From IMG/VR virus record IMGVR_UViG_2695420343_000002: a DNA stretch of 46,924 bases; one strand, written 5' to 3'. Made by a program: the position numbers and the translations under genes. The notes under the pieces were generated by a model that had not been told where the DNA came from, searched no databases, and was given only the letters and a program-made list of their open reading frames with translations. How positions within the stretch are numbered: the stretch's first letter is position 1; every line of letters begins with the position of its first letter. Below, in pieces: positions 1 to 27,891 of the stretch. Source of the DNA: a virus (taxonomy: Duplodnaviria; Heunggongvirae; Uroviricota; Caudoviricetes).

Positions 1-431
1 TGTTCTCTTCGATTTGCTCACGCTCAGCTTGGTCAATAACTCCATCAGCAGTGCCTTGCGTAAGTACTGGGAATGCTTGCCAATCCATTCTATTGACTCC
101 ATCAGCCGCTGATAATGTCCCATTGTCAATGTCATCAATGACCACCAGCGGCACAAACACCCATTACTACGACGCTATTGCATCTGTTACATGCCTGTAC
201 CACTGGCATCCTGTAAAACCATGGCCCACTCAAGTGGAAAAATTTGATCCCCACCGCTACGCAGTCTGTTATGCAATTGATCTTTTGCTGGGGTGATATC
301 ATCAGATTTATACAAACCAAGAATTTCTGCTGCTTCCTCATAGCCATGAGGTAAATCAGCAATCGTTCTTCGTATTGCTGCCACCAGCCATGCTGTTGTT
401 TATCAACTTTCCATTCAGGTTCTTTACCCAC
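1..431 (-). pseudogene. CII-like/YdaT-family early regulator, truncated at window start and frame-broken copy of 39568-40152
   Basis: Same DNA as 39715-40152 with several single-base length differences; track ORF 135-431 keeps only the first 12 residues ([12 protein letters not shown]) in the same frame. Confidence 0.45.
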
Positions 432-458
432 GGTTAATTCCTCATTTCTGTGGTGTTT

Positions 459-654
459 TTATGCCGCAGCACTGTTAGTCTTTTGATATAAAGACACGTC
501 AACTTTCAGTTTCCCGTTAGTAATTTTTCTAACTGGTACGCTCGGCCTTCAGGAATAATCTCAGGCCACTCTGAAACAGACGGATGCTTAATACCTAGGC
601 TTCGGCGGTTTTACAAACTCCGCCGAAATAATTAATCACGTCGGATTTCCGCAT
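459..654 (-). pseudogene. Cro-like (YdaS-family HTH) gene, frame-broken copy of 40180-40377
   Basis: No intact ORF here; two 1-bp length differences versus copy B (taatttttct vs taattttttct, cctaggc vs cctagggc). Confidence 0.4.
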
Positions 655-687
655 TTCTGTCTCCCGTTAAATTACGTTAAGCAGAAA

Positions 688-703
688 TGTAGGATATCCA
701 ACA
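688..703. promoter_or_regulatory. Operator-like 16-bp site TGTAGGATATCCAACA (copy of 40411-40426)
   Basis: Near-palindromic site between divergent cro-like and cI genes; same motif recurs downstream of cI. Confidence 0.45.
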
Positions 704-749
704 TACCAATGTCAAGAATCCTACATGGGCATGTGGTAGGATTGCCTAC

Positions 750-1400
750 ATGATGAACATGAGTGATCGTATTCGCCAAAGGCGAAAAGAACTGAACCTG
801 ACACAACAAGCACTGGCTGATTTGACTGGTGTGAACCGTGTCACGGTTACTGGATGGGAAAAGGACGACTACCAACCAAATGGAGCCAACCTTCAAGCCC
901 TAGCCAACGCACTTAAATGCGATCCTCTGTGGCTTGTTAGCGGAAAAGCTCGCCTGAACCAAAGATAAATCTAAAACCTGAAATATTCGCAGTTAAAAAA
1001 GTCCCCCTCATCTCGTGGTTCAGGCGGTTCATGGACAATGACGGAGCCTGGTGTCAGGAAAGAAGATGCTGAAGAGTGGGTTTATACTACCGCCCTTGTA
1101 TCAGAAATGGCATTTGCACTACGGGTCCGTGGTGATTCAATGACCAATCCCCTCGGCTCACCATCGATACCAGAAGGTTCTATCGTTATCGTAGAGCCAG
1201 ATATTATTGATACAGAGTGTATTAACGGAAAAATCGTTGTTGCCCATATCAATGGTGGGCAAGAAGCGACACTCAAAAAATTTGTTGAGGACTGGCCGAA
1301 CAGGTATCTCGTCCCACTAAATCCTAACTATAAAACTATTGAATGCGGTGAGAACTGCAGAATAGTTGGTCTTGTCAAACAAGTAATAATGGATTTTTGA
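750..1400 (+). pseudogene. CI-type prophage repressor (HTH + S24 peptidase), frame-broken copy of 40473-41126
   Basis: Track splits it into 750-968 and 1038-1400; copy B is one 217-aa ORF with the same residues. Confidence 0.55.
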
Positions 1401-1424
1401 CACATCTTCCTCACTATCGCAAAA

Positions 1425-1446
1425 CCGGGGTATCCCCGGTTTTTTT
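1425..1446 (+). terminator. Rho-independent terminator after cI (copy of 41151-41172)
   Basis: Hairpin CCGGGGTATCCCCGG followed by T7 run, 25 bp after the cI stop. Confidence 0.7.
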
Positions 1447-1463
1447 ATGAGCCTATCTTTTTA

Positions 1464-1514
1464 TGTAGGATAACCAACATAAACTCTTGACACTCACATG
1501 TTGGATATCCTACA
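1464..1514. promoter_or_regulatory. Inverted pair of operator-like sites flanking a TTGACA hexamer (copy of 41190-41240)
   Basis: TGTAGGATAACCAACA and TGTTGGATATCCTACA in inverted orientation, 18 bp apart. Confidence 0.45.
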
Positions 1515-1633
1515 TTTGTTTTTAGAGTTGTGGTGAATGCGCAGGCTGATGCGCGAAAGACATTGCAGCTATTGCGGAAAAGAGCTGTTCGGCGGGGCCA
1601 TTAAACGCCCGTATCTGGAGGTTAAAGAACAAA

Positions 1634-1909
1634 ATGAAAGTCCAGATTTTAAACAATAGTGGTGAAGTCGTTTGGTCATACGACATAGCCGCTCCTGTAG
1701 ATCAGAGCGGCGATAGCTGGACCAATGGGAAACATCAGATTATGGCTGGAGTTGTATTCTCTTTACGCCGTGCTTTGGAACAGGCTGAAGTATTTCCATC
1801 AGACCCTGAATGGAAATGGCCTTTTTCTATTTGTCCAAATTCGGAGAGCACATTTCAGAAAATTGGTCAGAAAGTCGCACTCGAAGAGCATCAGCCAACT
1901 GTTTCCTGA
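1634..1909 (+). CDS. Hypothetical protein downstream of cI (copy of 41360-41635)
   Basis: GGAGG 8 nt upstream of ATG; 91-aa ORF; no recognisable motif. Confidence 0.5.
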   Translation: MKVQILNNSGEVVWSYDIAAPVDQSGDSWTNGKHQIMAGVVFSLRRALEQAEVFPSDPEWKWPFSICPNSESTFQKIGQKVALEEHQPTVS

Positions 1910-2072
1910 TTTTTTCAGGTAACTCGTCGGCATCGCAGAAACAACAACGCTCGATCATGTTGAAAGCCGATTCGTAGAACTGTTTCTGCTGAGTGTCGCT
2001 GAGACAGGAAAAGAGCGACGTTACGATGATTTTATTAATTGCATTATCAAGTTCTTTTTCATCAAAAGTCAT
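1827..2072 (-). CDS. Hypothetical protein, convergent with and overlapping the previous ORF (copy of 41553-41798)
   Basis: AAGGA 7 nt upstream of ATG; 81-aa ORF; 83-nt 3' overlap with 1634-1909 leaves one of the two in doubt. Confidence 0.45.
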   Translation of the reverse strand: MTFDEKELDNAINKIIVTSLFSCLSDTQQKQFYESAFNMIERCCFCDADELPEKIRKQLADALRVRLSDQFSEMCSPNLDK

Positions 2073-2506
2073 TTGATTTTCCTTTTATGTATACGGGCTT
2101 AAAAGGATACCACCGAGCCTGAAGTGGTGAAAAGACAGGCACATAACAGCTAAGTATTTTCAACCAGAGAGAATCCTTAGCGTTGTGGTGAATGCGGCTC
2201 AGCGCACGCGGTTAAGGTTGAGGCTGACAGTCGACCTTCTGTGGATACCCACCCGCCTGGTGTGCAACCTTCGCCAGGCACCGGAGGCACCCGGCACCAC
2301 AACTTTATGCTGTGTGTAGTCCTCGCGGTACCAGTTTGTACACTTGCTTCCGGCTGGTACCGCTCTTTTACAAAACAGAGAAGAGCATCACCGGACGACG
2401 GGCTCATAACCCAATCCATCCGGGCGGCTGCCACCGCAGGTGTTCTTCTCTGTTTTGTGGAGAAACCAACCGACCTTGCAGGGTCGATATGATGAGGAGC
2501 AGCAAA

Positions 2507-2868
2507 ATGGCTAGCGAACGCAGTACTGATGTGCAGGCATTTATCGGGAGCTGGACGGCGGCGTATTTGAAACCAAAATCGGCGCAGTTCTCAGTGAAGT
2601 CGCTTCCGGTGTGATGAACACGAAAACCAAAGGGAAGGTCTCACTCAACCTGGAAATCGAACCATTTGATGAGAACCGTGTGAAAATCAAACACAAACTC
2701 TCATATATTCGCCCGACTAACCGCGGGAAAATTTCCGAAGAAGACACCACCGAAACGCCGATGTATGTCAATCGCGGTGGTCGCCTGACTATTCTGCAGG
2801 AAGACCAGGGACAATTACTGACTCTTGCCGGTGAACCTGACGGAAAACTCCGCGCAGCAGGTCATTAA
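2507..2868 (+). pseudogene. YfdP-like early protein, frame-broken copy of 42236-42598
   Basis: Track gives 2312-2614 and 2611-2868 in different frames; copy B has one ORF; difference is atcgggag vs atcggggag. Confidence 0.45.
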
Positions 2869-2933
2869 TATCGTTTTTAATAAACTGATTATTTATCTCA
2901 TCACTGAATATTTTTATATAGTGAGGACTTATT

Positions 2934-3758
2934 ATGTCTCAGAACTTAGACGCAACCGCAATTAATCAAATCCATGCCCTTATTTCTGCTCAGGGTGTTA
3001 ATGAAATTATCAGTAAGATTGGTGCCGATGCTGTGGCATTGCCTGAGAATTTCCGCATTCATGATCTGGAAAAATTTAATTTAAATCGCTTCCGTTTCCG
3101 TGGTGCGCTTTCCACTGCCAGCATCGATGACTTTACCCGTTATTCTAAAGATCTTGCAGATGAAGGCACCCGCTGCTTTATCGATGCTGATAATATGCGT
3201 GCCGTCAGTGTGCTTAACCTGGGTACTATTGATGAACCAGGTCACGCAGATAACACCGCCACACTCAAACTGAAAAAGACAGCACCGTTCTCTGCTCTGT
3301 TGTCTGTTAACGGCGAGCGTAACTCCCAGAAATCACTGGCAGAATGGATTGAAGACTGGGCCGACTACCTTGTGGGCTTTGATGCTAATGGTGACGCCAT
3401 TCAGGCAACAAAAGCGGCTGCGGCAATCCGTAAAATCACGATTGAAGCAAACCAGACCGCTGATTTTGAAGATAATGACTTCAGCGGCAAACGCTCCCTG
3501 ATGGAATCTGTCGAAGCGAAGACCAAAGACATTATGCCAGTGGCATTTGAATTTAAATGCGTTCCGTTTGAAGGTCTGAAAGAACGTCCGTTTAAATTAC
3601 GCCTCAGCATTATCACTGGCGATCGTCCTGTACTGGTTCTGCGCATTATTCAGCTGGAAGCAGTGCAGGAAGATATGGCTAACGAATTTCGTGATCTGCT
3701 TGTTGAGAAATTCAAAGACAGCAAAGTAGAAACCTTTATTGGTACTTTCACCGCCTGA
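2934..3758 (+). CDS. YfdQ-like phage early protein (274 aa)
   Basis: Intact 274-aa ORF; length and position after a YfdP-like gene match the KplE1 yfdPQRS block as I recall it. Confidence 0.75.
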
Positions 3759-3885
3759 TTTCATTACTGCAAATGCCCCTGCGGGGGCATTTATGGAAAC
3801 GTAATTAACTCAATAATCACCGGATGGTGAGGGCTTCCTTTTACCCAAACTCAGCGCGGTGCAGCGCATATACGTGGAGAACAAA

Positions 3886-4422
3886 ATGTCATTTATTAAA
3901 ACTTTTTCCGGGAAGCATTTTTATTATGACAGGATAAATAAAGACGACATCGATATTAACGATATCGCGGTTTCTCTTTCAAATATCTGTCGCTTTGCCG
4001 GTCATCTTTCGCACTTCTACAGCGTCGCCCAACATGCGGTTCTTTGCAGCCAGCTGGTGCCGCAGGAATTTGCTTTTGAAGCGTTAATGCATGATGCAAC
4101 AGAAGCGTATTGCCAGGACATTCCCGCACCACTGAAACGCCTTCTTCCTGACTATAAACAAATGGAAGAAAAAATAGACTCCGTAATCCGTGAGAAATAC
4201 GGATTACCCCCAGTTATGAGTACGCCCGTGAAATATGCCGATCTCATCATGCTGGCAACCGAACGCCGCGATCTCGGGCTTGATGATGGCTCTTTCTGGC
4301 CTGTACTGGAAGGTATCCCGGCAACAGAGATGTTCAACGTGATTCCACTGGCACCGGGCCATGCCTACGGGATGTTTATGGAACGCTTTAACGAGTTATC
4401 GGAGTTACGCAAATGCGCATGA
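3886..4422 (+). CDS. HD-domain phosphohydrolase (YfdR-like)
   Basis: H..H and HD motifs (SVAQHAV, ALMHDATEAY); ATG at 3886 has GGAGA 6 nt upstream; track start 3859 is a GTG. Confidence 0.75.
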   Translation: MSFIKTFSGKHFYYDRINKDDIDINDIAVSLSNICRFAGHLSHFYSVAQHAVLCSQLVPQEFAFEALMHDATEAYCQDIPAPLKRLLPDYKQMEEKIDSVIREKYGLPPVMSTPVKYADLIMLATERRDLGLDDGSFWPVLEGIPATEMFNVIPLAPGHAYGMFMERFNELSELRKCA

Positions 4423-4775
4423 ATGTTTTCGAAATGGAAGGGTTTCTTCGTGGGAGATGTGTACCGCGAGATCTGAAAGTAAATGAAACAGATGCTGAAT
4501 ACCTGGTGCGTAAATTCGATGCGCTTGAAGCTAAATGTGCAGCACAGGAAAACAAAGTAATACCAGTGTCAACTGAACTGCCACCAGCAAATGAAAGTGT
4601 TTTGTTATTCGATGCTAACGGAGAAGGCTGGCTAATTGGCTGGCGTTCTCTCTGGTACACCTGGGGACAAAAAGAAACCGGAGAATGGCAGTGGACATTT
4701 CAGGTCGGGGACCTTGAAAACGTCAATATCACTCACTGGGCAGTAATGCCAAAAGCACCGGAGGCTGGAGCATAA
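4413..4775 (+). CDS. DUF551-like protein (YfdS-like)
   Basis: 120 aa; C-terminal W-rich region ending NITHWAVMPKAPE resembles the DUF551 signature. Confidence 0.65.
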   Translation: MRMNVFEMEGFLRGRCVPRDLKVNETDAEYLVRKFDALEAKCAAQENKVIPVSTELPPANESVLLFDANGEGWLIGWRSLWYTWGQKETGEWQWTFQVGDLENVNITHWAVMPKAPEAGA

Positions 4776-5353
4776 TGACCACTTTTACTGACAAAGAACT
4801 GATTAAAGAAATTAAAGAGCGTATCAGCAGCCTTGACGTGCGAGACGATATTGAGCGCCGTGCTTATGAAATTGCACTGGCATCACTGGGAGCAGAACCT
4901 GTAAGCCAAACTTACAACTTGCCAGAATTAATCGAAGGCATGGAGGTTTCCATTGATGTAAGCACTTGTGATGCGGATTTAGGTAATCGCTATTTCGGTA
5001 CCGTCACCGAGGCGTTAGAACTTGATACTGCCAAGAATGGTTACATCCTCCTGGTTCAGGACGCAGAGCCAAACTTCGATATAAATGGCAACTCTCCGGT
5101 AACTCCGGATGGTTGGGTCATGGTGCCGAAGAAACTAACCGCTGAGAACGGCGCTAAGGGTGTGCTATCCGGTGAATTTTCAGAAACTACGTTTATAAGC
5201 TGCCCGGAATGCTTTGGCGATGATGATTGCGATACCTGCGACGGGAGCGGACGTATTGAAATTAAAGTGCCAGTCACGTGGTCGACCATAAAATCTATCT
5301 GGGATAAAGGTATCGAGTATTTTGCAGCAAAACCATCACAAGAGGTGAAGTGA
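4775..5353 (+). CDS. Hypothetical protein with C-terminal zinc-finger (CPEC...CDTCDGSG)
   Basis: 192-aa ORF; start overlaps previous stop (ATGA); CxxC plus CxxCxGxG motif. Confidence 0.65.
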   Translation: MTTFTDKELIKEIKERISSLDVRDDIERRAYEIALASLGAEPVSQTYNLPELIEGMEVSIDVSTCDADLGNRYFGTVTEALELDTAKNGYILLVQDAEPNFDINGNSPVTPDGWVMVPKKLTAENGAKGVLSGEFSETTFISCPECFGDDDCDTCDGSGRIEIKVPVTWSTIKSIWDKGIEYFAAKPSQEVK

Positions 5354-5925
5354 TGAACAACTTAATGATCGACCTTGAGACGATGGGGAAAAATAAGGAT
5401 GCACCGATCGTTTCCATTGGCGCGGTGTTCTTTACCCCAGAAACCGGTGACATCGGACAAGAATTCTATGCGGTTGTCAGCCTGGACAGTGCTATGAAGC
5501 AAGGAGCTACACCTGACGGCGATACCATCCTGTGGTGGTTGAAACAGAGCCCTGAAGCACGAGCTGCAATCTGTATTGATGATACTTTATCGATCAGCGA
5601 TGCACTCTCTGAATTGAGTCATTTCATTAATCAGCATGCAGACAATATAAAATATTTAAAAGTCTGGGGTAACGGGGCCACCTTCGACAACGTAATTTTA
5701 CGTGGAGCTTACGAGCGAGCAGGACAAATCTGCCCGTGGGCGTACTGGAATGACCACGATGTACGCACGATCGTTACGCTTGGGCGTTCCATCGGATTCG
5801 ACCCCAAAATGGACATGCCTTTCGATGGCGAACGGCACAACGCCCTGGCTGATGCCCGTCATCAGGCAAAATATGTTTCCGCTATCTGGCAGAAATTAAT
5901 TCCTGCCACCAGCACAGAATTATGA
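5350..5925 (+). CDS. DEDDh-type 3'-5' exonuclease
   Basis: MIDLETMG (D-x-E) near the N-terminus and H-x4-D near the C-terminus (HNALADARHQ). Confidence 0.7.
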   Translation: MMNNLMIDLETMGKNKDAPIVSIGAVFFTPETGDIGQEFYAVVSLDSAMKQGATPDGDTILWWLKQSPEARAAICIDDTLSISDALSELSHFINQHADNIKYLKVWGNGATFDNVILRGAYERAGQICPWAYWNDHDVRTIVTLGRSIGFDPKMDMPFDGERHNALADARHQAKYVSAIWQKLIPATSTEL

Positions 5926-5961
5926 TTTTCCCGGGTGCAGCCGGTTTTGATGGAGAAAATT

Positions 5962-6243
5962 ATGAACACCTTGTTTTTACTGATGGCTGAATTCAATACC
6001 CCAAACATTGAACTCTCAGCAGTTAGCCAAAAGTACTTTGGTATGAGTCCAGCCACGGCAGAAGCAAAAGCAAACGCTTGTAAGTTGCCCGTTCCAACAT
6101 ATCGCATCGGCACATCACAAAAAGCAAAACGTTGCATCAATATTCAAGATCTTGCGGAATACATAGACAAAAGGCGAGAAGAAGGACGTATCGAGTGGGA
6201 ACAGGTCAGAACAGTCAAACAGAAGGACAAAGAACATCACTAA
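5962..6243 (+). CDS. Excisionase-like DNA-binding protein (TorI/PrtN-like)
   Basis: Small protein starting MNTLFLLMAEF; last gene before the int junction; GGAGA 7 nt upstream of ATG at 5962. Confidence 0.5.
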   Translation: MNTLFLLMAEFNTPNIELSAVSQKYFGMSPATAEAKANACKLPVPTYRIGTSQKAKRCINIQDLAEYIDKRREEGRIEWEQVRTVKQKDKEHH

Positions 6244-6273
6244 AGAAAAAACCCGCCTGAAGGCGGGTTTTCA
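6243..6273. terminator. Bidirectional rho-independent terminator
   Basis: ACCCGCC-TGAA-GGCGGGT hairpin flanked by an A-run and a T-run, between convergent genes. Confidence 0.7.
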
Positions 6274-6290
6274 AAAAGCACCAGCTATGA

Positions 6291-6464
6291 TCATGCTGCT
6301 TTGCGACGACGAAGCTTACCCTGCTGCTCTTTACCAGAGACAGTAGCGTGAGTGAACGCATTAGGAGCAGCCTTCATCAGAACTTCAACAGCAGCACCCA
6401 TACCTGCGAATGCTTTCATTGTGTCGAACTTAACCTGTGGCTTGGTTGCTTTTTGATCTTTCAT
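6291..6464 (-). CDS. Small basic protein, 57 aa, hypothetical (below track cutoff)
   Basis: Translated by hand: MKDQKATKPQVKFDTMKAFAGMGAAVEVLMKAAPNAFTHATVSGKEQQGKLRRRKAA; GGGAG 8 nt upstream of ATG. Confidence 0.5.
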   Translation of the reverse strand: MKDQKATKPQVKFDTMKAFAGMGAAVEVLMKAAPNAFTHATVSGKEQQGKLRRRKAA

Positions 6465-6535
6465 AGAAAACTCCCGAGACAGTAAAGGCGTCTCTAACCC
6501 TTTCTTTAAAGCTAGCTTGTTTCGCTAACTTATGC

Positions 6536-6556
6536 CAATCGATCATGTCGATTGGT
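6536..6556. promoter_or_regulatory. Palindrome CCAATCGA-N5-TCGATTGG upstream of the small ORF
   Basis: Perfect 8-bp inverted arms, 5-bp spacer, about 70 bp upstream of the 6464 start codon. Confidence 0.4.
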
Positions 6557-6660
6557 GACATCGTTTCTTAGTAGTTTAAGCACAAAACGACTGCCATAGA
6601 TGTACCTTTAAGGTAATCTGGACGGGTATCCTACAATTTGTAGACCCTTCTCGTCTATAC

Positions 6661-7197
6661 CTACTGAGCAAATTTAAGAAAGATATCCTGCAGCTCATCA
6701 ATGACTGCCGACATCACATAACCGCACTGTTCCATGCGGAAACCAAAAGACTCGTAATACTGCACCAGTTCTGGTACTGGCTCTACAATGTGGACAACTT
6801 TACATTCAACAGCTTTACAAAATATAAAAGCACTCATAAGAGTGAGTAAAACCATGCGCCCTTTCAATGGGTGAGATTCATCTTCTCTAGAAAACCTTTC
6901 GATCATATGGATACGAAAGATGTTTTCTTCAACCCCATAAACACAAATTGCTGCTCCTGATGGTATTCCCTGAACCCGACCTTGCTGAACAAGTTTTATG
7001 CAGAACTCATACTTTTCTCTGGAGTTGCCATAGGTACTTAACGCATAGTCCCATTCAAGCTCACCATAGCCACCACACAGAATCTTGTAATCATCATCAC
7101 TGAGCGGACCAACAGCAAGAGGTAAGCCGACATGATCAATAATCAACTGGATATTGTTACGTACTGATTGACCTATCTCGTCCAGGGTAAGCATCAT
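6661..7197 (-). CDS. Putative GNAT-fold N-acetyltransferase (accessory gene)
   Basis: 178-aa ORF; C-terminal YYESFGF resembles the GNAT motif; looks AT-rich by eye; no search run. Confidence 0.5.
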   Translation of the reverse strand: MMLTLDEIGQSVRNNIQLIIDHVGLPLAVGPLSDDDYKILCGGYGELEWDYALSTYGNSREKYEFCIKLVQQGRVQGIPSGAAICVYGVEENIFRIHMIERFSREDESHPLKGRMVLLTLMSAFIFCKAVECKVVHIVEPVPELVQYYESFGFRMEQCGYVMSAVIDELQDIFLKFAQ

Positions 7198-7533
7198 GGC
7201 CTCTCAAGCGGAACACTAAAAGTCGCATTATATCTCATTCTTAAGCCGCGTATGGATTACACCTTGAAATGAAAACGCCGGGTTCCCAATAGGCTCCCAC
7301 AGAGTGTATAACTGCTTGTTTTTCAACAACGGTACATCCTATCAAGCATAGGAGCAATGCTAAACCGAGAATTCCAGTAAACACCAGTTTTTTCAGGCAT
7401 CACGCTGGTTTGATTAATTTTTTGTGTTTCATGATTATCGTGCATTTTTGAACATTTCAGGCTATTTTTCTCGCGTTAGGTTCCCGCACAGGTTCCCACG
7501 TTTTATGGGAACCCGAAATAACGAGGTCGTGTA
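7198..7533. other. Noncoding region upstream of int with GGTTCCC repeats; candidate attP or integrase arm-site region
   Basis: GGTTCCC appears three times in direct orientation plus once inverted (GGGAACC) within 60 bp of the int start. Confidence 0.3.
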
Positions 7534-8631
7534 ATGGCGTACTATAACATAGAGAAACGACTAAAATCCGATGGCACACCACGCTATCGCTGTAATGTGA
7601 TTATCAAAGAAAAAGGTGTTATCACTTACAGGGAAAGCAAAACATTCCCTAAACATGCTCATGCCAAAACATGGGGCACACAGAAAGTGATGGAATTAGA
7701 TCTATATGGCATTCCATCATCAAATGCAGTTGACGGACTTACAGTCCGTGACTTACTACACAAATATTTAAATGACCCAAATGCCGGAGGTAAAGCAGGC
7801 CGTACTAAAAGATATGTGCTGGAACTGCTTATGGATAGTGACATCTCCGCGATCAAACTATCTGAACTGACAGAAAATGACGTAATTGAACATTGCAGGC
7901 TAAGAAACAACGCTGGTGCAGGTCCTGCAACAGTCAGCCACGATGTTAGTTATCTTGGCAGTGTTCTGGATGCGGCCAAACCTGTATACGGAATTAATTA
8001 CACATCAAACCCGGCGAAAAGCGCTCGCCCATATCTACTTAAACTTGGTTTGATTGGTAAATCAAACCGTCGTAATCGTAGACCAGCATCTGATGAACTG
8101 GACATGCTCATTGCAGGCCTTCAACAACGATCTACTCATAAATGCTCAAAAATTCCGTTCGTTGATATCCTCAAATTTTCTGTATGGTCCTGTATGCGAA
8201 TCGGAGAAGTATGCCGGTTACGATGGGAAGATCTCGACCAGGAACAAAAATCTATACTCGTAAGAGACAGGAAAGATCCACGCAAAAAGGAAGGTAACCA
8301 CATGAAAGTAGCCTTGCTTGGGGAAGCCTGGGATATCGTCCAACGACAGCCCCAAAAATCGGAATTCATTTTTCCATATAACAGCACTTCTGTTACTGCG
8401 GGATTTCAGAGAGTAAGAAGCAAATTAGGTATTAAGGATCTGCGATACCATGATTTGCGTAGAGAAGGGGCAAGTCGCTTATTTGAGGCTGGTTTTAGTA
8501 TTGAGGAAGTCGCCCAAGTTACAGGGCATCGTTCATTAAACGTGCTATGGCAGGTATATACCGAACTGTATCCGAAATCTTTACATAATCGTTTTGAAGA
8601 GCTCCAAAGGAGCAGAAATAAGACCTCTTGA
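7534..8631 (+). CDS. int: Tyrosine-type phage integrase
   Basis: 365 aa; RYHDLRREGAS box and GHRS...VLWQVYTELY tyrosine region; ACGAGG upstream of ATG. Confidence 0.9.
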   Translation: MAYYNIEKRLKSDGTPRYRCNVIIKEKGVITYRESKTFPKHAHAKTWGTQKVMELDLYGIPSSNAVDGLTVRDLLHKYLNDPNAGGKAGRTKRYVLELLMDSDISAIKLSELTENDVIEHCRLRNNAGAGPATVSHDVSYLGSVLDAAKPVYGINYTSNPAKSARPYLLKLGLIGKSNRRNRRPASDELDMLIAGLQQRSTHKCSKIPFVDILKFSVWSCMRIGEVCRLRWEDLDQEQKSILVRDRKDPRKKEGNHMKVALLGEAWDIVQRQPQKSEFIFPYNSTSVTAGFQRVRSKLGIKDLRYHDLRREGASRLFEAGFSIEEVAQVTGHRSLNVLWQVYTELYPKSLHNRFEELQRSRNKTS

Positions 8632-8660
8632 CACTGTTTATCCATACAGTTAAAAATAAT

Positions 8661-8679
8661 GCTGTATACAAACACAGTA
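8661..8679. promoter_or_regulatory. LexA (SOS) box
   Basis: gCTGTatacaaacACAGta matches the CTGT-N8-ACAG consensus, 14 bp upstream of the dinI-like start. Confidence 0.7.
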
Positions 8680-8692
8680 TGGAGGGACTTTT

Positions 8693-8941
8693 ATGCGTAT
8701 TGAAATCTGCATAGCCAAAGAAAAAATGACTAAAATGCCAACCGGTGCTGTGGATGCGTTAAAGGAAGAATTAACCCGACGCATCAGTAAGCGTTATGAC
8801 GATGTTGAGGTGTTAGTAAAAGCCACCAGCAATGATGGCCTTTCTGTTACACGCACCGCAGATAAGGATTCTGCAAAAACTTTTGTTCAGGAGACTCTGA
8901 AAGATACCTGGGAATCTGCTGACGAGTGGTTTGTTCACTAA
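8693..8941 (+). CDS. dinI: DinI-family protein
   Basis: 82 aa; [11 protein letters not shown]...[11 protein letters not shown] aligns by eye with E. coli DinI along its length; GGAGGG RBS. Confidence 0.85.
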
Positions 8942-9194
8942 TAAACACGTAAAATCTGTAACGGCTGGAAATCATTCAATACTCGCACTATCGAAAGTTC
9001 ACCAGCCAACCGCAGCGCGTTCTTGCATACGACGTGGCTGCGGTCTCAACTCCGTCCCCCACCAATCATGATTGGGCAGTACCAGTACAGCACTAGTAAA
9101 AACTGGAAATAAGCAGTCTCAGCAAAATACCGGCCAGACGGTGAGAAGACAAAAAAGATACGCAAAGTAGCCGCGGCCCTTAGTGACATGAAAT

Positions 9195-9214
9195 CCCGCT
9201 ATACGGGCTTTTTT
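9195..9214 (+). terminator. Weak terminator-like hairpin plus T-run
   Basis: CCCG-CTATA-CGGG then C TTTTTT; only a 4-bp stem. Confidence 0.3.
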
Positions 9215-9289
9215 GTATCTGCACACGATTGATTATTAGGTCCGTATAGCTAATAGTGGTCTTAACCTACATATAGAATCAGAGACTTT

Positions 9290-9985
9290 ATGAAAAAGGA
9301 AATACTCAAGGCTCTTTGCCCTACATGCGGTGGGTTACGTAACTGCACTGTGCATGGGAAGCTAACCACTAGCTGGGAGGATTCCCAATATCCAGTTTAT
9401 GGGTACCATTACCATCACCTACTCCAATGCAATGGCTGTGATACTGTCTTCTATCACCACAACGAACACTTCAGTGAGCATACTACCCACGAATATCGTG
9501 ATGGTGAATTTGTAGAAACGCCTATAGATATGATCACTACCTATCCTGCCGCTGAAACATTTCAAGCTCCGATATGGTTATCCAAGCTTGAATCAGTTGA
9601 TCGTCAGCTCTTTCAAATATTTAATGAAATGTATTCTTCATATACTTCTGACCATTTCATTCTTTCGTCCATCGGTTTACGGACGATTTTTGATCGAACT
9701 GCTGAACTGTTACAAATTCACCCCGGTTTGCCGCTTGGTGAAAAAGTTGAAAAATTAAAACAAGATGGAGTCATAGGCGACACTGAGGCATGCGTTATAT
9801 CTTCAGTAATTGATGCAGGAAACGCCGCCGCACATCGCAGTTGGAGCCCGAATAAAAGTGAGTTCGAACAAATGCTAGAAGCTATAGAAAGTTTTGTCCA
9901 AAGAACTATCTTGGGCAAAAAATCACTTGAACATATAACCAAACAACTCCCACCTCGGGTTACAAGACCTAAAAATAGTGCATAA
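9290..9985 (+). CDS. Zinc-ribbon plus DUF4145-like domain protein (candidate accessory or defence gene)
   Basis: N-terminal CPTCGG...C..H...CNGC; C-terminal GLRTIFDRTAELL...LGEKVEKLKQDGVI...IDAGNAAAHRS fits my recollection of DUF4145; AT-rich by eye. Confidence 0.55.
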   Translation: MKKEILKALCPTCGGLRNCTVHGKLTTSWEDSQYPVYGYHYHHLLQCNGCDTVFYHHNEHFSEHTTHEYRDGEFVETPIDMITTYPAAETFQAPIWLSKLESVDRQLFQIFNEMYSSYTSDHFILSSIGLRTIFDRTAELLQIHPGLPLGEKVEKLKQDGVIGDTEACVISSVIDAGNAAAHRSWSPNKSEFEQMLEAIESFVQRTILGKKSLEHITKQLPPRVTRPKNSA

Positions 9986-10011
9986 TCCGCGATCATCAAT
10001 GTGGCGTAAGG

Positions 10012-10604
10012 CTATGGTTTACTTGCTACAGGGAATTTTTTATACACCGTTGAAATACCCAGATCATAAATCAGTGCGACTTGCTGCTGATATATTCCCG
10101 ATTCAATCAACCTGCCAGCCTGCCCCCATTGTTCTACTGTCAGCTTTGGCTTTCGCCCACCGTTCCTCCCTTCTTGTCGTGCTGCGGCAAAGCCGCCCTA
10201 GTACGTTCGACAATAAACTCTCGCTCCATTTCAGCCAGGGCACCCATCACATGAAAGAAAAAGCGCCCCATTGGTGTGCTGGTATCAATAGCATCCGTCA
10301 GGCTGCGAAAATTAACGCCACGTTCGCGCAACTCTTCCACCAGCACGACAAGATGCCGCATACTGCGCCCCAGTCGGTCCAGTTTCCAGACCACCAGCGT
10401 GTCACCTGCCGATAATGTCCTGAGCAGCTTTTTCAGTCCTGGTCTGTCGGACTTTGTACCGCTTATCTTGTCTTCAAAAATCAGCTCACATCCTGCACAG
10501 TTCAACGCATTACGTTGTAGATCGGTGTTCTGGTCATTTGTTGATACGCGAACATAGCCAATAAGCATGATTGCTCCTCCTGACAAAAACAGGAACGATG
10601 CCAT
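10012..10604 (-). CDS. Pin/Gin/Hin-family DNA invertase, frame-broken
   Basis: N-terminal MLIGYVRVSTNDQNTDLQRNAL catalytic domain (track 10140-10604); the HTH tail GRNGGRKPKLTVEQW...STVYKKFP is in another frame down to 10012; shift lies in a G-run near 10186-10199. Confidence 0.7.
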
Positions 10605-10627
10605 TTGCTCGTTATTTCTGCATTTTC

Positions 10628-10647
10628 ATAAACCTTGGTTTGGGAGA
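10628..10647. repeat. Invertase crossover site (gix/hix-like), left
   Basis: ATAAACCTTGGTTTGGGAGAG; an 18-bp core AAACCTTGGTTTGGGAGA is repeated inverted at 12447-12466. Confidence 0.7.
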
Positions 10648-10993
10648 GGCGGCGAAAAGGGATGTGGGCACAGGAGATAATCAGATACCGGATATGGGAG
10701 CATTCGCTTCTGGTTCGGGATGGTTCAGGCTACCAGGTGGATATATTGTTCAGTTTGGCACTTTTGCAGGAAACACGACCCGCTTTATCAGTGGACACTT
10801 CCCTATACCATTCCCTAATCAGCCGATGGTTTCAGTCAGTGTTATGTCTGATGCCGTTCAGTCAGACCCGTCGATTCCTGCCCCGCAGGTTTTGTCTGTA
10901 AATTTTGAACATATCAGTAATTCAGCGTGGCGTGTGGCAACCAGTGATATCTCATATCAATACAGATTCAGTTATATTTCGATAGGACGGTAG
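10631..10993 (+). CDS. Alternative tail-fibre C-terminal variable segment (promoterless, expressed after inversion)
   Basis: Frame shares the NLGLGE residues encoded by the crossover site with the tail fibre at 12001-12747; track ORF 10571 starts with TTG. Confidence 0.55.
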   Translation, partial: NLGLGEAAKRDVGTGDNQIPDMGAFASGSGWFRLPGGYIVQFGTFAGNTTRFISGHFPIPFPNQPMVSVSVMSDAVQSDPSIPAPQVLSVNFEHISNSAWRVATSDISYQYRFSYISIGR

Positions 10994-10995
10994 AA

Positions 10996-11436
10996 ATGCA
11001 GAAATATATTTTCAGTGCCGATAAAAATGCGTTTTTCCCTGTGGAGCTTAAAATCGCTTATCAGGAATCCGGCGAATGGCCCGGTGATGGAATCGAAATT
11101 GACGACACTGTTGCCGCCGAATTTATGAAGGAAGCACCAGAAGGAAAATACAGAGGCGTCATCGACGGAATGCCTGCATGGATTGATATTCCACCGCCAA
11201 CTCATGAGGAACAAATTGCCGCAGCCGAACTGGAAAAGCAGCAATTGATTAATCAGGTCAACGAATACATAAACAGTAAGCAATGGCCTGGTAAAGCGGC
11301 GATTGGTCGCCTGAAAGGTGAGGAACTGGCGCAATATAATTTGTGGCTGGATTATCTGGACACACTGGAACTGGTCGATACTTCCGGTGCGCCAGATATT
11401 GAATGGCCTACGCCTCCGGCAGTTCAGGCCAGATGA
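10996..11436 (+). CDS. Tail fibre assembly protein (alternative copy)
   Basis: 146 aa; C-terminal TSGAPDIEWPTPP typical of tail-fibre assembly chaperones. Confidence 0.7.
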   Translation: MQKYIFSADKNAFFPVELKIAYQESGEWPGDGIEIDDTVAAEFMKEAPEGKYRGVIDGMPAWIDIPPPTHEEQIAAAELEKQQLINQVNEYINSKQWPGKAAIGRLKGEELAQYNLWLDYLDTLELVDTSGAPDIEWPTPPAVQAR

Positions 11437-12001
11437 CATCCGGCGCGGTGCTGGTATCTGTTACCGTCATCGCGTCAATGTAATCCAGCACGGCGTTAAG
11501 TCGGGTTGTTTCTGCCTGCGTCAGCTTCCGTCCGGCCTGTAATTTCAGTTGAATCAGACTGATGGAAGCCATTGCAGCATCAATCAGCGACTGGCGCTGT
11601 GCTTCTGCTGCGTCTACTGCGGCACTATGCTGTGCCTCAGTATCTGTCACCCATTTCTCACCATCCCATTTATCGTATGGCGTTAACGGTGAAAGCGTGA
11701 CATAACCGTCTTTGATGGCACCGATATAATCCACTGTAACAGCTGCGCCATTTTCGATTGAGTAAACAGTCTCATTGCGGTGGTCTTCTTCATGGCTCCA
11801 TCCCTTACCCGTAAATACTGCCACTTTCCCCGGAATGTATTCGCCCGGGTCAATACCAGTGGAACAGGCGGGCATACTTACGCCAGTATTAATATATTCA
11901 TCAGACCAGCCCGTATACTCAGATGTTTCAGCATCATAATAAAAACAACGCATATCGCCCGGCACTGTAGCCAGCCCATTTTCATCAAAAACAGGTTTCA
12001 T
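11408..12001 (-). CDS. Tail fibre assembly protein (currently expressed orientation)
   Basis: 197 aa; C-terminal TSTAPDVIWPELPEA; immediately downstream of the tail fibre gene. Confidence 0.7.
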   Translation of the reverse strand: MKPVFDENGLATVPGDMRCFYYDAETSEYTGWSDEYINTGVSMPACSTGIDPGEYIPGKVAVFTGKGWSHEEDHRNETVYSIENGAAVTVDYIGAIKDGYVTLSPLTPYDKWDGEKWVTDTEAQHSAAVDAAEAQRQSLIDAAMASISLIQLKLQAGRKLTQAETTRLNAVLDYIDAMTVTDTSTAPDVIWPELPEA

Positions 12002-12747
12002 TATTTAGCCCTCACCAGAAAGTTAAATGCAATATTTCGCGGTCTGACAGCAACAAAATTCACACCATCACCCACAGAGTTACTGGTGAAATTAAATCGT
12101 GAAAATCCTGGCTGATTTCCGGCGATGCCATCATGAAAGTTAATTGCGTGTCCCGCACCTCCGCCTATATTCCCGGCAAACTGAGAAAAGTTTGTAGCTT
12201 CCTGCCAGCTTAATAATTCGCGACCGCCATCGGCACCTCGCCCGTCATCCCAGATACGAATGAAATCACCGCGGGCTTCAGGTAATACCAGTGAAGGAAA
12301 CACTTTCGCCAGCACAGGGTAATCAGAGGCAGAAAATTTCGCCCCGTTGAACTTCAAAAACACCATACTGGACCAGCTGTCGATTACAGTATTTGGCATT
12401 GCAGCGGACGGCCAGAAGAACGGAACGCCAATAGCTGGAGCACCTTCTCCCAAACCAAGGTTTTCGAGAGCCGTTTTCACCGTGCCATCCGATTTGATAT
12501 CACCAAACGGATTCTTGCGGCTTAACAGCAGAGCACGAAGCGCGGTAAGCAACTGGTCGTGCCGCGCCTTCTCCAGACTGGCACCGGAGGCTTCCACCAC
12601 GCTGCAAAGCTCCTCCTGCAACATGTCAAAGTAGTCATCATCCAGATCGGTGGCAGGCGTGCCGGTCTGGGGGTTACCACGGGTAAAACCGTTCTTACCC
12701 GCGCCGAACTTATCCTTCTGCGCGGTTTTCGTGTCTATACGATGCAT
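12001..12747 (-). CDS. Tail fibre protein (constant N-terminus outside, variable C-terminus inside the invertible segment)
   Basis: 248 aa; crossover site lies in-frame at codons for ALENLGLGE. Confidence 0.7.
12447..12466. repeat. Invertase crossover site (gix/hix-like), right
   Basis: CTCCCAAACCAAGGTTTTCG is the inverted partner of 10628-10647. Confidence 0.7.
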
Positions 12748-12750
12748 GGA

Positions 12751-13335
12751 TTACTCCGGATATTTAAAAATTACGTAGGTATGCGACGGGCAGAGTTTGT
12801 TAAGCACACACTCGACAACGGTGTCACCCCAGATACGCAGTGCGGAATCACAGGGATCGCCACATGTCATCCAGGTGGTGTTGGTGGCTGCTGGCATGTT
12901 GACCTGCCAGTAATACCGCCATTCCGGCGCATTCACCGCGTCAGTACAGGCCGATGAGCAGGTGAACGTGCTTTTGTCGTATCGCGTGATGGTGGCATCT
13001 GGTCTGCCCAGGGCAGCAAGCTGTGCAAGATAAAAATCCTCGTTGATGCCGCCCGCCAGGTTAACCTTCGCATCCAGCCGTTGCTGACGCTGGCGAAGGG
13101 TCTGTGTCCCTGCGGGAATACATTCATCCGGCAGACCGCACAGACGCTCCCAGCGGTTTATCAGTTCAGTGGTGGTGCGCGGATCCAGCTCCCGCATCAG
13201 GGCATCCGCACGCTGATGAACGCGGGTTAATGACGGTGCCGCACCGGCAATCGACGGATCGCTGGCTGACCACGCCGGACCGGGGGGCAACAGTGCCGAC
13301 AACAGACGGATGTAATCATCGTTTGTCACGTCCAT
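12751..13335 (-). CDS. Mu gp48 / YmfQ-like tail protein (DUF2313-like)
   Basis: 194 aa, same length and position as e14 YmfQ upstream of the tail fibre. Confidence 0.6.
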
Positions 13336-14384
13336 GAAATCGTCCCCAGTACCGCCAGTTCATTTTTTGCAATGGAGATATTGTCTGCCGGTGCAAGCAA
13401 CTGATGGCTGTATTCCCCGTTCGCACCGGAAATCGCCTCACTGATACGCGATACCTTCAGTTCTCCCTGCGGATAACCATCACGCAGCAGGAACGAACGC
13501 AACTCCGCGGTGATGGCAGCCCGTATTTCCGGTGTGTCCGGCGTCACACGGATATGAAAATCCACCGTATGCGCCACCGGCCTGAATACATACAAATCAG
13601 AGCCTGCCACCGGGGCCAGTGGCTCAATGTGTTGTCTTGCCGCCGTTTCCGTTGATTCTTCCGGAATGGGGTTAATCAGGTCACTGCCGGCAATCATCAC
13701 ACCGACAGTCCCCGTTCCCATCCAGTGGCGGTATGTCCATGCGCGGGTAATGCCGGGAACTTCTTTAGCCCAGACGACATAGTCCCCGTCAGCCCCGCCC
13801 TGAGGCGTCCAGTAATACCGCTCAATGACGCGGGCGCGCCACGTTTCCAGCTCTTCAGTATCAAATCCACCTGTCAGTGTATCTGCCACGCCGGAAGACG
13901 GCAGACCATTCACCGGCGTGACCAGGATTAATGACGTACCGTCGTCAGCGTTACCGACCGCGCCTGCACTTGAGCAGGCGATCGGCACGCGCAGGACACC
14001 ACCGGAGCTGGTTGCATCGGCAGTTGCCGTGTACTGCACCAGGTCATCGCGCTGAATAACACTCCCGGCGGTCACCTTCAGGCCATCGCTGACACCTTCC
14101 CAGCGCATATACCCGCTGGCAGCCGTGGCCCCCTTGCGCGGACACCGTTTCATCGCAGCATGTCGCGCCAGCCAGGACTCATCGCACAGGTCAGGCAGCA
14201 TATTCATTGCCAGATAATCGATGTACCCGTAAACCGTATGCAGCGCCGCCGCATACACCTTTGCCCGCACGTCTTCATCCATGCGCCGGAGCGTGTCGCT
14301 GACGTCCAGCCTGGCGAATAAATCGTTACGGAGCATACTGATATTTTCTGCCAGCGTCGGGCGCTGAAATTCACTGTCCGCCAT
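13326..14384 (-). CDS. Baseplate J-like protein (Mu gp47-like)
   Basis: 352 aa; position between gp46-like and gp48-like genes. Confidence 0.65.
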
Positions 14385-14799
14385 GCGTTATCGCACTCCA
14401 CAGATCATCAAAAGAAATCATTACCGGTCCGTCACGACGCCAGAGAGTGATACTGTTACCCAGCTCATTAATCCCGGTGCGGCGGATATCCAGATCAATA
14501 CGGGACACCACGCCGTCATCAATCATCCATTGCAGGCATTCGCGGATATACCCCCTTACCGTCTGCACCAGCTGATTGGTCAGTTTGCTGCGCTGAAGCA
14601 GCCACAGTCGGGAGCCGTAACGGTCATTCTGTACCGCAGGCCAGGTATCCCCCCACCATCCCATCGGGACGTCGGCGTTGTCATCAGGCTCCGCCCGCCG
14701 CCAGGTGAACAGGGAAATCACCACGGCGCGGGTCAGCGGATCCAGCGGTGCGCTGGCGCAGGTGCGTTTACCGTTCACCGTCAGCCACAGTTCCATCAT
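14371..14799 (-). CDS. Mu gp46-like baseplate protein
   Basis: 142 aa; position and size. Confidence 0.6.
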   Translation of the reverse strand: MMELWLTVNGKRTCASAPLDPLTRAVVISLFTWRRAEPDDNADVPMGWWGDTWPAVQNDRYGSRLWLLQRSKLTNQLVQTVRGYIRECLQWMIDDGVVSRIDLDIRRTGINELGNSITLWRRDGPVMISFDDLWSAITHGGQ

Positions 14800-15344
14800 G
14801 CCTCCATCGCTTTATCAGGTTTGTCGGTGTTACTTCCCTGACCGTTCTCTCTGTGACGATGCCCGTTATAGGCAAGCCGCATCGCTGACATGGTGGTGCC
14901 GCCGGAGTCGCACAGGTCTTTCACCTGTCCGGTCACTTCCAGGTCCATTTCAAAACGTGCTCTGGGCGCATTGCGAAACGTGATCGTTTTACCTGCACCG
15001 TCCACCACGATCCCCTCCCGGGTCAGCGTCACGGACTGCCCCTGATCGTCATAGACAGCCACCTCCCCCGTTTGCAGCCCTTTCAGGCGGTAGCGACGGT
15101 CCGACACCGTAACAACCACCGCATGAGAACGGTCGCCATCCGGAAACAACACCACCGCTTCCGCACCGCTGTTTGCCCTTGCGGTAAAACCGTAGGGTTC
15201 AAGATGTTCAACCCCGGCTTTGGGTTCACCGGCAATCAGGGACACATCCACGGTCTGACATTTCGTGGCGGCACTGATGCTTTTCACCACGGCCCGCCCA
15301 ATCAGGCCGAGGAGTTGTCGCTGCATGGCTTCAATCGTCCTCAT
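14796..15344 (-). CDS. Baseplate spike/assembly protein V-like (Mu gp45-like)
   Basis: 182 aa; position after the P-like gene. Confidence 0.55.
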   Translation of the reverse strand: MRTIEAMQRQLLGLIGRAVVKSISAATKCQTVDVSLIAGEPKAGVEHLEPYGFTARANSGAEAVVLFPDGDRSHAVVVTVSDRRYRLKGLQTGEVAVYDDQGQSVTLTREGIVVDGAGKTITFRNAPRARFEMDLEVTGQVKDLCDSGGTTMSAMRLAYNGHRHRENGQGSNTDKPDKAMEA

Positions 15345-17880: not shown

Positions 17881-17895
17881 AAATTAATGTAAGGT

Positions 17896-18273
17896 TTACC
17901 CTGCTATTTTTTGAGCCAGATGAGCCTGCAATTTATAAATGTTTGCTCCTTTACTGAACTGTTTTTTTATCGGTTCTGCAATACCAGAAATCCATATCTT
18001 CATTTCAGCATCAAGATCAAGATGCCCGGCGGTTTCAATAGAAAAGTTTGTCACAGATTTATAAGGAATCGAACGATACTCTACTTTTTTCCCTGTGACA
18101 CCCTGCTTATCAATAAAAATTAACCTTCTGTTAGTCAGAATAATTTGGTCACGAATGAGTTTATAGGCAAGTTCGACATTTTCTCCCTCACCTAAAACAG
18201 CCCCTAATTCCTGTTGTGCATCTGATGCATTAATTTCACCGGCATTACCTATAATGGCATGTAACAGACCCAT
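17896..18273 (-). CDS. PH-like domain protein (bacterial PH-domain-like), moron inside the tail module
   Basis: ILTNRRLIFIDKQG...VEYRSIPYKSVTNFSIE...LDLDAEMKIWISG pattern; AT-rich by eye; likely start MGLLHAII with GAAGGGA RBS (track ORF extends to 18354). Confidence 0.55.
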   Translation of the reverse strand: MGLLHAIIGNAGEINASDAQQELGAVLGEGENVELAYKLIRDQIILTNRRLIFIDKQGVTGKKVEYRSIPYKSVTNFSIETAGHLDLDAEMKIWISGIAEPIKKQFSKGANIYKLQAHLAQKIAG

Positions 18274-18325
18274 AGATTTCCCTTCAGTTGATAACAAACT
18301 TAAAGACAAATTATATCTGGTTCCG

Positions 18326-22578: not shown

Positions 22579-22586
22579 GAAGATTC

Positions 22587-24355: not shown

Positions 24356-24367
24356 ACTCAGCCCTCT

Positions 24368-24559: not shown

Positions 24560-24608
24560 GATTCTTCACCCGTCAGAACAGGGGGCGCGGTTCCACGCCC
24601 CTGAGTGA

Positions 24609-25814: not shown

Positions 25815-25828
25815 CGTATTTCTCCTGA

Positions 25829-27880: not shown

Positions 27881-27891
27881 AATTACCTCAG

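Follow-up and report, generated by a model that had tools for sequence, protein, structure and literature searches.

Assembly origin of the 7.2-kb repeat around a dusA-integrating, SfV-like cos phage in Escherichia coli FDAARGOS_170

The 7.2-kb repeat found at both ends of the window (the whole 46,924-nucleotide stretch of DNA analysed here) arises from the layout that a long-read assembler gave to a prophage and from the excision of the window from its contig, and it reveals no new phage genome structure. The most likely source of the extra copy, with a probability of roughly 0.55, is an attP junction contributed by free phage DNA beside a single prophage in dusA. The window is best read as a single cos phage of 39,730 bp with 7.2 kb of redundant sequence, and not as a complete genome with a direct terminal repeat. 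Such a repeat is a poor signal of completeness for a provirus cut from a contig end. The finding is ordinary whether the second junction comes from free phage DNA or from a tandem array of prophages.

Geometry of the repeat and origin of its indels

In a BLAST alignment within the window, positions 1-7194 match 39714-46924 without a mismatch; the identity is 99.76%, and the 17 gap columns fall into 16 gap openings. The first segment (copy A, 1-7194) is a partial second copy of the att-proximal phage arm and runs from a YmfL/CII-like gene to the last ORF before attP, and the second (copy B, 39714-46924) is the same segment inside the full-length prophage with all of its genes intact. The phage unit itself spans 7195-46924, and the window contains 1.181 such units. 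A preliminary description of this DNA had placed the repeat at 1-7197 and 39715-46924 with a period of about 39.7 kb, and had counted at least 15 single-base indels, mostly in homopolymers, and no substitutions. The repeat, its preference for deletions in base runs and the lack of substitutions are borne out, its ends and the count of differences are corrected here, and the isolated indels placed near 6481 and 6600 do not exist: 2547-7194 and 42277-46924, the last 4,648 bases of the two copies, are identical letter for letter. The word 'terminal' that it applied to the repeat suits the extracted window, but no genome.

Exactly 17 differences separate the copies, each of them one base absent from copy A. 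They lie at copy A positions 52, 114, 120, 163, 174 (two bases), 197, 395, 524, 598, 948, 1019, 1026, 2210, 2283, 2366 and 2546. All but one of the 17 fall in runs of two to six identical bases, against a background of 48% of bases in that stretch; seven are found within the first 200 bases and none past 2546.

Phage 720R4 carries the copy B form at 17/17 sites and phage SKA5 at 16/17, the retrieved SKA5 stretch ending short of the 17th. In E. coli chromosomes 2717 bases correspond to a 2700-base query, and the independent short-read contig SRR2822473_170 is identical to window positions 34505-46924 (100.000% over 12,420 bases). Since the copy B form is shared by two phages, by several E. coli chromosomes and by a short-read contig, we conclude from sequence comparison that the 17 differences are sequencing errors and that copy B is correct, which upholds the earlier attribution of the indels to error-prone reads. 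The pattern is that of consensus errors at the end of a contig assembled from long reads: indels dominate, only the terminal copy is affected, the errors are denser towards the contig end, and independent sequence matches the internal copy.

Near-identical overlaps and low-quality contig ends have been described for long-read assemblies in the Circlator paper (PMC4699355). Similarly to the redundant ends of PacBio HGAP/Canu assemblies discussed there, the present case shows a near-identical duplicate with single-base indels at the termini only, both contig ends are affected and the internal copy is right. Unlike those overlaps, the contig ends here duplicate parts of an internal prophage and not one another, because the break sits in the repeat made by the attP junction. 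A redundant contig end of this kind would begin with a poor consensus, and the terminal copy would then miss polishing, as reads would fit the correct internal copy better and over their full length.

The deletions hit four genes of the phage immunity region. In copy A, the gaps at 948, 1019 and 1026 break the cI gene (750-1400, plus strand) into pieces of 72 aa (750-968) and 120 aa (1038-1400), Cro is left with 28 aa, and neither the YmfL/CII-like gene nor YfdP is called. The same region is intact in copy B (39568-42598), where it comprises YmfL, CII-like (39568-40152, minus), Cro (40180-40377, minus), the cI repressor with its HTH_3 and Peptidase_S24 domains (40473-41126, plus) and YfdP (42236-42598, plus). 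The claim that these genes are disrupted in copy A only is therefore right, and the frameshifts at 1-2546 are errors and no sign of a defective prophage. The preliminary description treated any frameshift in the window as a possible artefact; this caution holds for 1-2546 and goes too far beyond it, as errors are demonstrated only in that stretch. The only recorded contig with the 72-aa cI chimera of copy A is LORS02000001.1 (752-970). Searches of plasmids and complete genomes gave no identical match to copy A, and an exact search of viral_contigs for a 50-mer peculiar to copy A was likewise empty, which was read as the window being no IMG/VR record. The C-terminal cI piece of 120 aa matches unrelated genomes with other cI disruptions.

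Disruption of cI, cro, the CII-like gene and YfdP is also what a decayed, pseudogenised duplicate with 17 true deletions would display. Such a duplicate would hardly have gathered deletions only, 16 of 17 in base runs, with 0 substitutions in 7.2 kb and an identical final stretch of 4,648 bases. The density of the deletions drops away from the contig end, the opposite end of the contig behaves alike, and the short-read contig has the copy B form only, unbroken. Given this error pattern and the short-read contig, we reject truly differing copies as extremely unlikely.

Position of the prophage at the two contig ends

The window is an exact match, with an offset of 2, to bases 3-46926 of LORS02000001.1, the 5,236,233-bp chromosome contig of E. 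coli FDAARGOS_170 (strain identity in PMC6997174). The FDA-ARGOS protocol combines PacBio RS II and Illumina sequencing with assembly by Canu, HGAP, Celera or SPAdes and correction by Pilon (PMC6658474). Copy A lies at the extreme 5' end of the contig (window position 1 is contig position 3). Copy B is internal (contig 39716-46926 of 5,236,233), and host DNA follows immediately past window position 46924, with attR, zur, yjbJ, lexA, dgkA and plsB. From its 5' end the contig accordingly reads as the last 7.3 kb of the phage, attP, the whole 39.7-kb phage, attR and the host chromosome, and it closes at the 3' end with dusA, attL and the first 13.9 kb of the phage.

The 3' contig end, from the dusA-int junction to the sheath gene, aligns to window positions 7342-21249 with 34 errors, namely 32 missing bases, one extra base and one substitution. 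All 34 are located within the last 6.6 kb and 31 of them within the last 2.8 kb, where gene calls for the tape-measure protein, gpP and gp46 are missing; like the copy A frameshifts, the disrupted tail genes of this terminal 6.6-kb stretch are errors. Among the missing bases, G predominates at the 5' end (11/17) and C at the 3' end (15/32), a bias that may reflect too few reads in one orientation.

Each contig end reaches about one read length into phage sequence that is found in full further in. An end overlap as in a circular replicon was looked for, and the 3' end matches window positions 7342-21249, not 1-7194. Between the 3' and 5' ends about 18.5 kb of phage sequence (window-equivalent 21250-39713) is absent, and from this layout the break in the contig therefore falls inside the prophage. 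In the public reference assembly GCA_001471755.2 the ends at this prophage are thus untrimmed or unresolved; what the reads show should decide between removing about 21 kb and adding about 18.5 kb.

Within the window, the repeat reaches both ends and its period equals one genome length, as in a stand-alone circular or terminally redundant phage genome with overlapping contig ends or a virion direct terminal repeat, which the preliminary description had favoured. The chromosome contig overturns this proposal, which we regard as close to impossible. The window belongs to a contig of 5.24 Mb in which copy B is an internal segment bordered by host genes, and neither copy marks a physical end of the phage DNA. 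At its right end the window stops where a gene call stops, that of a 177-aa ORF read from its second ATG; this is a cut at a gene boundary and no genome end. The cos site, as in SfI (see below), speaks against it as well, and no headful/pac or DTR packaging was found.

The attP junction and integration in dusA

In the window the two phage arms meet at an 8-bp attP crossover core, TCAAGCAT (7342-7349, plus strand), which is common to attL and attR; identity with attL begins at 7342, identity with attR stops at 7349, and the flanks are imperfectly similar. A 40-aa ORF runs over the core (7323-7445, minus strand) and is the substitute 5' end that the phage carries for dusA, here joined to the opposite phage arm. 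Its exact product is recorded on two contigs only, the second of which is 44.3 kb long. At the 3' contig end the integrase directly adjoins dusA at attL, and a 345-aa Dus gene is called there. The attR sequence and the dusA-like stretch of the phage are about 91-92% identical, and in a relative from strain HH107 a partial dusA remains at attR.

Insertion into the 5' end of dusA by an integrase, with a new 5' end supplied by the element, places this prophage among the dusA-associated integrase elements of Farrugia et al. 2015 (PMC4482086). The elements described there likewise have their integrase beside the 5' end of dusA, leave the displaced 5' fragment of the gene at the opposite junction, and are bounded by attL and attR sequences that form imperfect direct repeats. 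With no notable difference from them, it is another such E. coli prophage.

The attP junction appears to be real DNA, judged from where an independent assembly breaks. SRR2822473_170 stops at 7349, the last base common to attP and attR, and because a contig is expected to end exactly where attP and attR diverge if the graph branches there, this break argues for a junction present in the DNA. The join could instead be a pure misassembly, for example a chimeric long read linking the phage arms, and chimeric joins do tend to survive at contig ends. We consider this very unlikely, as the join is exact at an 8-bp core common to attL and attR, and a short-read contig from a run with the same rare phage proteins stops at the very base of divergence; run SRR2822473 also contains the rare 197-aa tail protein of this phage, and appears to be the Illumina run of FDAARGOS_170 or another run from that strain. 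That the short-read contig breaks at the att core rather than running through into attR further suggests that attP is no trace species. How this break is read depends on the pruning of weak branches by the assembly.

Source of the additional copy

In the reading that we prefer, the strain would carry one dusA prophage, and the DNA preparation would also have held extrachromosomal phage DNA. Spontaneous induction could have supplied such DNA as circles, concatemers or cos-ended virion DNA. The assembler would then have attached reads spanning attP on the int side of the collapsed prophage, and the 7.3-kb spur at the 5' end would be the outcome.

Related replicons provide a precedent. In a survey of 5,426 complete E. 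coli genomes (20,395 RefSeq records), a contiguous attP of the same family was found in three 'plasmid' replicons of 37.7-43.7 kb and in 0 chromosomes, a base rate that is soft because the 'plasmid' phage contigs could themselves be collapsed tandem arrays. The three circular records (NZ_CP081704.1, NZ_CP081794.1 and NZ_CP081716.1) are alike in being phage-sized, in having a contiguous attP of the same att family and in sharing the same immunity region. Unlike in those replicons, the attP-bearing sequence here is attached to the chromosome contig and has no circular contig of its own. The assembly includes no separate phage contig, and for each rare phage protein just two accessions exist, both from the large contig, which weighs against the free-phage reading.

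The same layout would arise from a true tandem double lysogen, in which dusA, attL, phage, attP, phage and attR follow one another in the chromosome. Tandem polylysogeny has its classic case in phage lambda, and the order attL, attP, attR and the identical head-to-tail copies would be alike here. Identical copies of 39.7 kb exceed the reads and would have been collapsed, with the contig broken inside copy 1 and a gap of about 18.5 kb, and the 17 indels would remain contig-end errors. In favour of such an array, all three junctions (attL, attP and attR) occur together with host flanks: attP and attR share a contig that continues rightwards into host DNA, and attL adjoins host DNA at the opposite end. 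The assembly contains 7.3, 39.7 and 13.9 kb of phage sequence with no phage contig apart, and the short-read contig branches at the att core, which suggests that attP is not rare; a 1:1 array accounts for a non-trace attP without extra assumptions.

Nevertheless, the first copy is discontinuous, with nothing joining attL to attP in an unbroken run, although the assembler could not have resolved such an array. One prophage together with free phage DNA yields an identical layout, and the 5,426 complete genomes offer the three phage-sized circular replicons and no chromosome with a contiguous attP of this family. A tandem double lysogen had earlier been called the less likely explanation, with host sequence beside either copy taken as the mark of a real duplication. 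Host genes do follow copy B, which turns the tandem array into a serious rival, but such flanks are no proof of it by themselves. We regard a true array as possible but less likely, and hold the same tentative view of FDAARGOS_170 as a strain with two or more identical tandem copies of a dusA-integrating, SfV-like cos phage. If true, a natural tandem polylysogen would be hidden in a regulatory-grade reference genome, whose contig would be without about 18.5 kb of the first copy.

An attP:attL read ratio derived from the lengths of the ends (7.3 versus 13.9 kb) and the widths of the error zones was dropped; these widths reflect read length and not abundance, since at any depth the internal copy draws polishing reads away from redundant ends.

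Identity and packaging of the phage

The complete unit (7195-46924; 39,730 bp) is a myovirus similar to SfV, SfI, SfII and SfIV; its head is of the HK97 type, its contractile tail is Mu-like and its early region is lambdoid. Its tyrosine integrase (365 aa; 7534-8631, plus strand) matches the Pfam family Phage_integrase. The packaging module (27892-30592, minus strand) is composed of the large terminase (27892-29625), a P27-family small terminase matching Pfam Terminase_4 (29622-30125) and an HNH endonuclease (30242-30592), all on the minus strand. Between the HNH and small terminase genes lies a cos site, TGCCCGCCCC (30167-30176, minus strand), which occurs once and is identical to the experimentally determined 10-nt cohesive end of SfI.

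Because the cos site matches that of SfI, the virions lack terminal redundancy. Together, the cos site, the P27-type small terminase and the HNH gene indicate unit-length cohesive-end packaging. The cos site is the ground on which headful and DTR packaging were rejected.

The morphogenesis module is about 97% identical to those of SfV, SfI, SfII and SfIV over 58-75% of a 22.8-kb query, and the lambdoid early region is likewise shared with SfV-group phages. Unlike these four phages, which integrate at a site between proA and yaiC (PMC3636060), the present phage is integrated in dusA. It also differs from them in that no O-antigen modification genes are called between int and the tail fibres, an interval that holds DinI and DUF4145 genes.

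The last ORF of the unit (177/178 aa) has no Pfam match. Its assignment as a Panacea-domain gene proved wrong, as the Panacea gene of relatives is a different gene in the same position. The 177-aa form is indexed in 18,885 blocks of the sequence collection.

The source contig and its three phage junctions

Self-alignment of the window matches copy A (1-7194) to copy B (39714-46924), the second copy inside the full-length prophage, over 7,211 columns with 99.76% identity. No position is mismatched, and the 17 gap columns (16 openings) all mark bases missing from copy A: at 52, 114, 120, 163, 174 (two bases), 197, 395, 524, 598, 948, 1019, 1026, 2210, 2283, 2366 and 2546. Sixteen of them fall within runs of two to six identical bases, the background for the stretch being 48% of bases. 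From 2547 to 7194 the copies agree letter for letter, so the indels that the preliminary description placed near 6481 and 6600 are absent. With a phage unit of 39,730 bp (7195-46924), the window amounts to 1.181 units.

The deletion at 948 creates a chimeric 72-aa cI fragment in copy A, and a search of 153 billion gene positions found it recorded on exactly one contig, LORS02000001.1 (752-970; 5,236,233 bp) of assembly GCA_001471755.2. Window base 1 is contig base 3, and the left end of the window is therefore a true contig end; contig 34507-55085 is identical to the window at an offset of 2 where the two overlap. The assembly represents strain FDAARGOS_170, initially labelled E. fergusonii and then E. 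coli (PMC6997174). FDA-ARGOS bacterial genomes combine Illumina and PacBio RS II reads, assembled with SPAdes, Canu, HGAP or Celera together with Pilon (PMC6658474). The right end of the window coincides exactly with the end of a called 177-aa ORF starting at the second ATG of a CATCAT pair, which points to a provirus cut at a gene boundary. Immediately past 46924 follow the host genes zur, yjbJ, lexA, dgkA, plsB, ubiA, ubiC and malM.

For each of three rare tail proteins of the window, LORS02000001.1 has two GenBank accessions, about 4,760 numbers apart, and the second set lies within the last 19 kb of the contig. In forward order, this 3' end carries host MFS, FAD-binding, qorA, pspG and dusA genes, then int, DinI, DUF4145 and tail-fibre genes, and stops in the sheath gene. 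It aligns to window 7342-21249 and adds a third, partial phage segment from attL-int to the sheath gene (LORS02000001.1 5222357-5236233). The phage junction (attP), the dusA/int-side host junction (attL) and the zur-side host junction (attR) align at a common core, TCAAGCAT (7342-7349), with attP identical to attL right of the core and to attR left of it; the first difference between attP and attR is base 7350 (A in attP, C in attR). Because the three junctions share this core with identities on opposite sides, the contig reads 5'-[last 7.3 kb of phage]-attP-[whole phage]-attR-host (about 5.17 Mb)-dusA-attL-[first 13.9 kb of phage]-3'. A simple overlap of a circular contig is rejected, since the two copies do not sit at opposite ends of a contig.

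The closely related prophage of E. coli HH107 is a single copy inserted in the dusA 5' end that leaves a partial dusA at the far junction, an arrangement that agrees with the dusA-associated integrase elements described earlier (PMC4482086). The last ORF before attP (177/178 aa; 6661-7197 and 46391-46924, minus strand) matches no Pfam family and is extremely common, with index entries in 18,885 blocks of the collection. Since SocA/Panacea-domain genes occupy the same position in relatives, the place adjoining att seems to be a variable cargo slot.

Packaging

In its morphogenesis genes the phage shares about 97% identity with SfII, SfI, SfIV and SfV. The cohesive end of SfI was determined experimentally as the 10-nt TGCCCGCCCC, and the same cos has been reported for the packaging of SfII, SfIV and SfV (PMC3636060, PMC3851460). 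This decamer occurs once in the window (30167-30176, minus strand), between an HNH endonuclease gene and a P27-family small terminase gene. Judged from this site, virion DNA should be unit-length with cohesive ends. The cos lies far from both window ends. A direct terminal repeat of the phage is accordingly rejected: the copies do not occupy the physical ends of a genome, and the packaging is not of the type required. The circular or terminally redundant phage genome first proposed thus gives way to a chromosome contig with host flank and a cos-packaged phage.

Errors at the contig ends

Which copy is correct can be read from independent sequences. Phage vB_EcoM-720R4 has the copy-B form at all 17 sites and phage SKA5 at 16 of 17, the remaining site lying outside the fetched stretch; in several complete E. 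coli chromosomes the equivalent of window 1-2700 spans 2,717 bases, again the B form. The earlier suspicion that the indels are artefactual is thereby confirmed. Copy B carries intact genes for the CII-like YmfL (Pfam Phage_CP76), Cro (P22_Cro), cI (HTH_3 and Peptidase_S24) and YfdP. The cI gene of copy A is broken into fragments of 72 aa and 120 aa, its Cro is shortened to 28 aa, and its YmfL and YfdP genes have no gene call. Annotation is also inconsistent between identical sequences: a 57-aa ORF is annotated at 6291-6464 (copy A) and absent at 46021-46194 (copy B).

The 3' terminal segment differs from the internal copy in 34 columns (32 missing bases, one extra base, one substitution), all confined to its final 6,569 bases, with 31 of the 34 in the final 2,825; its tape-measure, gpP and gp46 genes lose their calls. 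Both contig ends are degraded alike while the internal copy is clean, which makes the 17 and 34 errors a contig-end effect. For assemblies of this kind, overlaps that are nearly identical and contig ends of low quality have been described (PMC4699355). The errors may have persisted since reads would fit the correct internal copy better, and at full length, leaving the redundant ends short of polishing reads. Missing bases are G in 11 of 17 cases at the 5' end (window 1-2546) and C in 15 of 32 at the 3' end; this roughly mirrored strand bias may mean that each end had very few reads of one orientation. The finding can be used to mark false frameshifts and unresolved ends of this reference assembly.

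Origin of the attP junction

A chimeric join, with no real attP in the DNA, is unlikely in view of run SRR2822473. A short-read-type contig of 14,061 bp from this run matches window 34505-46924 with 100.000% identity, extends as far as the base equivalent to 7349, the final base of the core, and goes no further. A stop exactly at this branch point is what a de Bruijn graph would produce if the reads contained both the attP and the attR continuations. The phage's 192-aa early protein and its rare 197-aa protein for tail-fibre assembly are encoded in this run too, so the reads would appear to come from the same strain or, failing that, from the same phage.

Exactly the observed contig is predicted by either of two sources of attP: one prophage accompanied by free phage DNA, or a genuine tandem array in the chromosome. 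As identical 39.7-kb copies are longer than reads, the assembler would collapse the phage body either way and then attach one junction per side. We consider free phage DNA somewhat better than an even bet (roughly 0.55). Among 20,395 RefSeq complete E. coli records, the contiguous attP of the family (window 7190-7510, full coverage) occurs in three, all 'plasmid' replicons of 37.7-43.7 kb, and on no chromosome; an attP-specific 40-aa ORF is on record elsewhere only on one 44.3-kb contig. Both observations count for free phage. The tandem array, which we hold to be possible at about one chance in three, is favoured by the lack of a separate phage contig in the assembly and by an attP plentiful enough to break the short-read contig. 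Whether free or tandem, each element is matched by something known: the phage is of the SfV-like cos type, integrated in dusA at ordinary att sites, the artefact is a familiar redundant, error-rich contig end, and the attP junction has two familiar sources.

Five 37.7-43.7-kb records listed as plasmids of E. coli or Salmonella match the phage family (NZ_CP081704.1, NZ_CP081794.1, NZ_CP081716.1, CP085522.1, CP077666.1), and in the first three the family's attP is contiguous. Rather than plasmids, the five are probably genomes of phages, either free or from a collapsed tandem.

Further features of the window and its flank

Perfect 18-nt inverted repeats (10630-10647 and 12446-12463) flank the tail-fibre tip and assembly genes, next to an apparently truncated ORF of 154 aa (10140-10604, minus strand; no call in the record) whose sole domain is a resolvase N-terminal domain. 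Bases 10630-11689 have the opposite orientation in the prophage of HH107, and the region is split in the short-read assembly, yielding a 1.9-kb contig; 10140-12463 is a probable invertible host-range segment. The DNA-circulation (tail) gene (16420-17880, minus strand) contains, in frame, a perfect 42-bp tandem repeat of 3.3 copies (16810-16949). Inside the O-like replication gene (38282-39223, minus strand), four copies of the 15-bp iteron-like repeat CAGATTTTGACGGGT (38851-38914) probably mark the phage replication origin.

In the host DNA right of the window, dinF has no call. Relative to HH107, to which this region is only 96.7% identical, 11 bp are duplicated in tandem, giving GCCGCCAGATA twice (13705-13715 of the fetched contig stretch L024; contig about 48211-48221); the duplication does not resemble the errors of long reads and could be a genuine frameshift.
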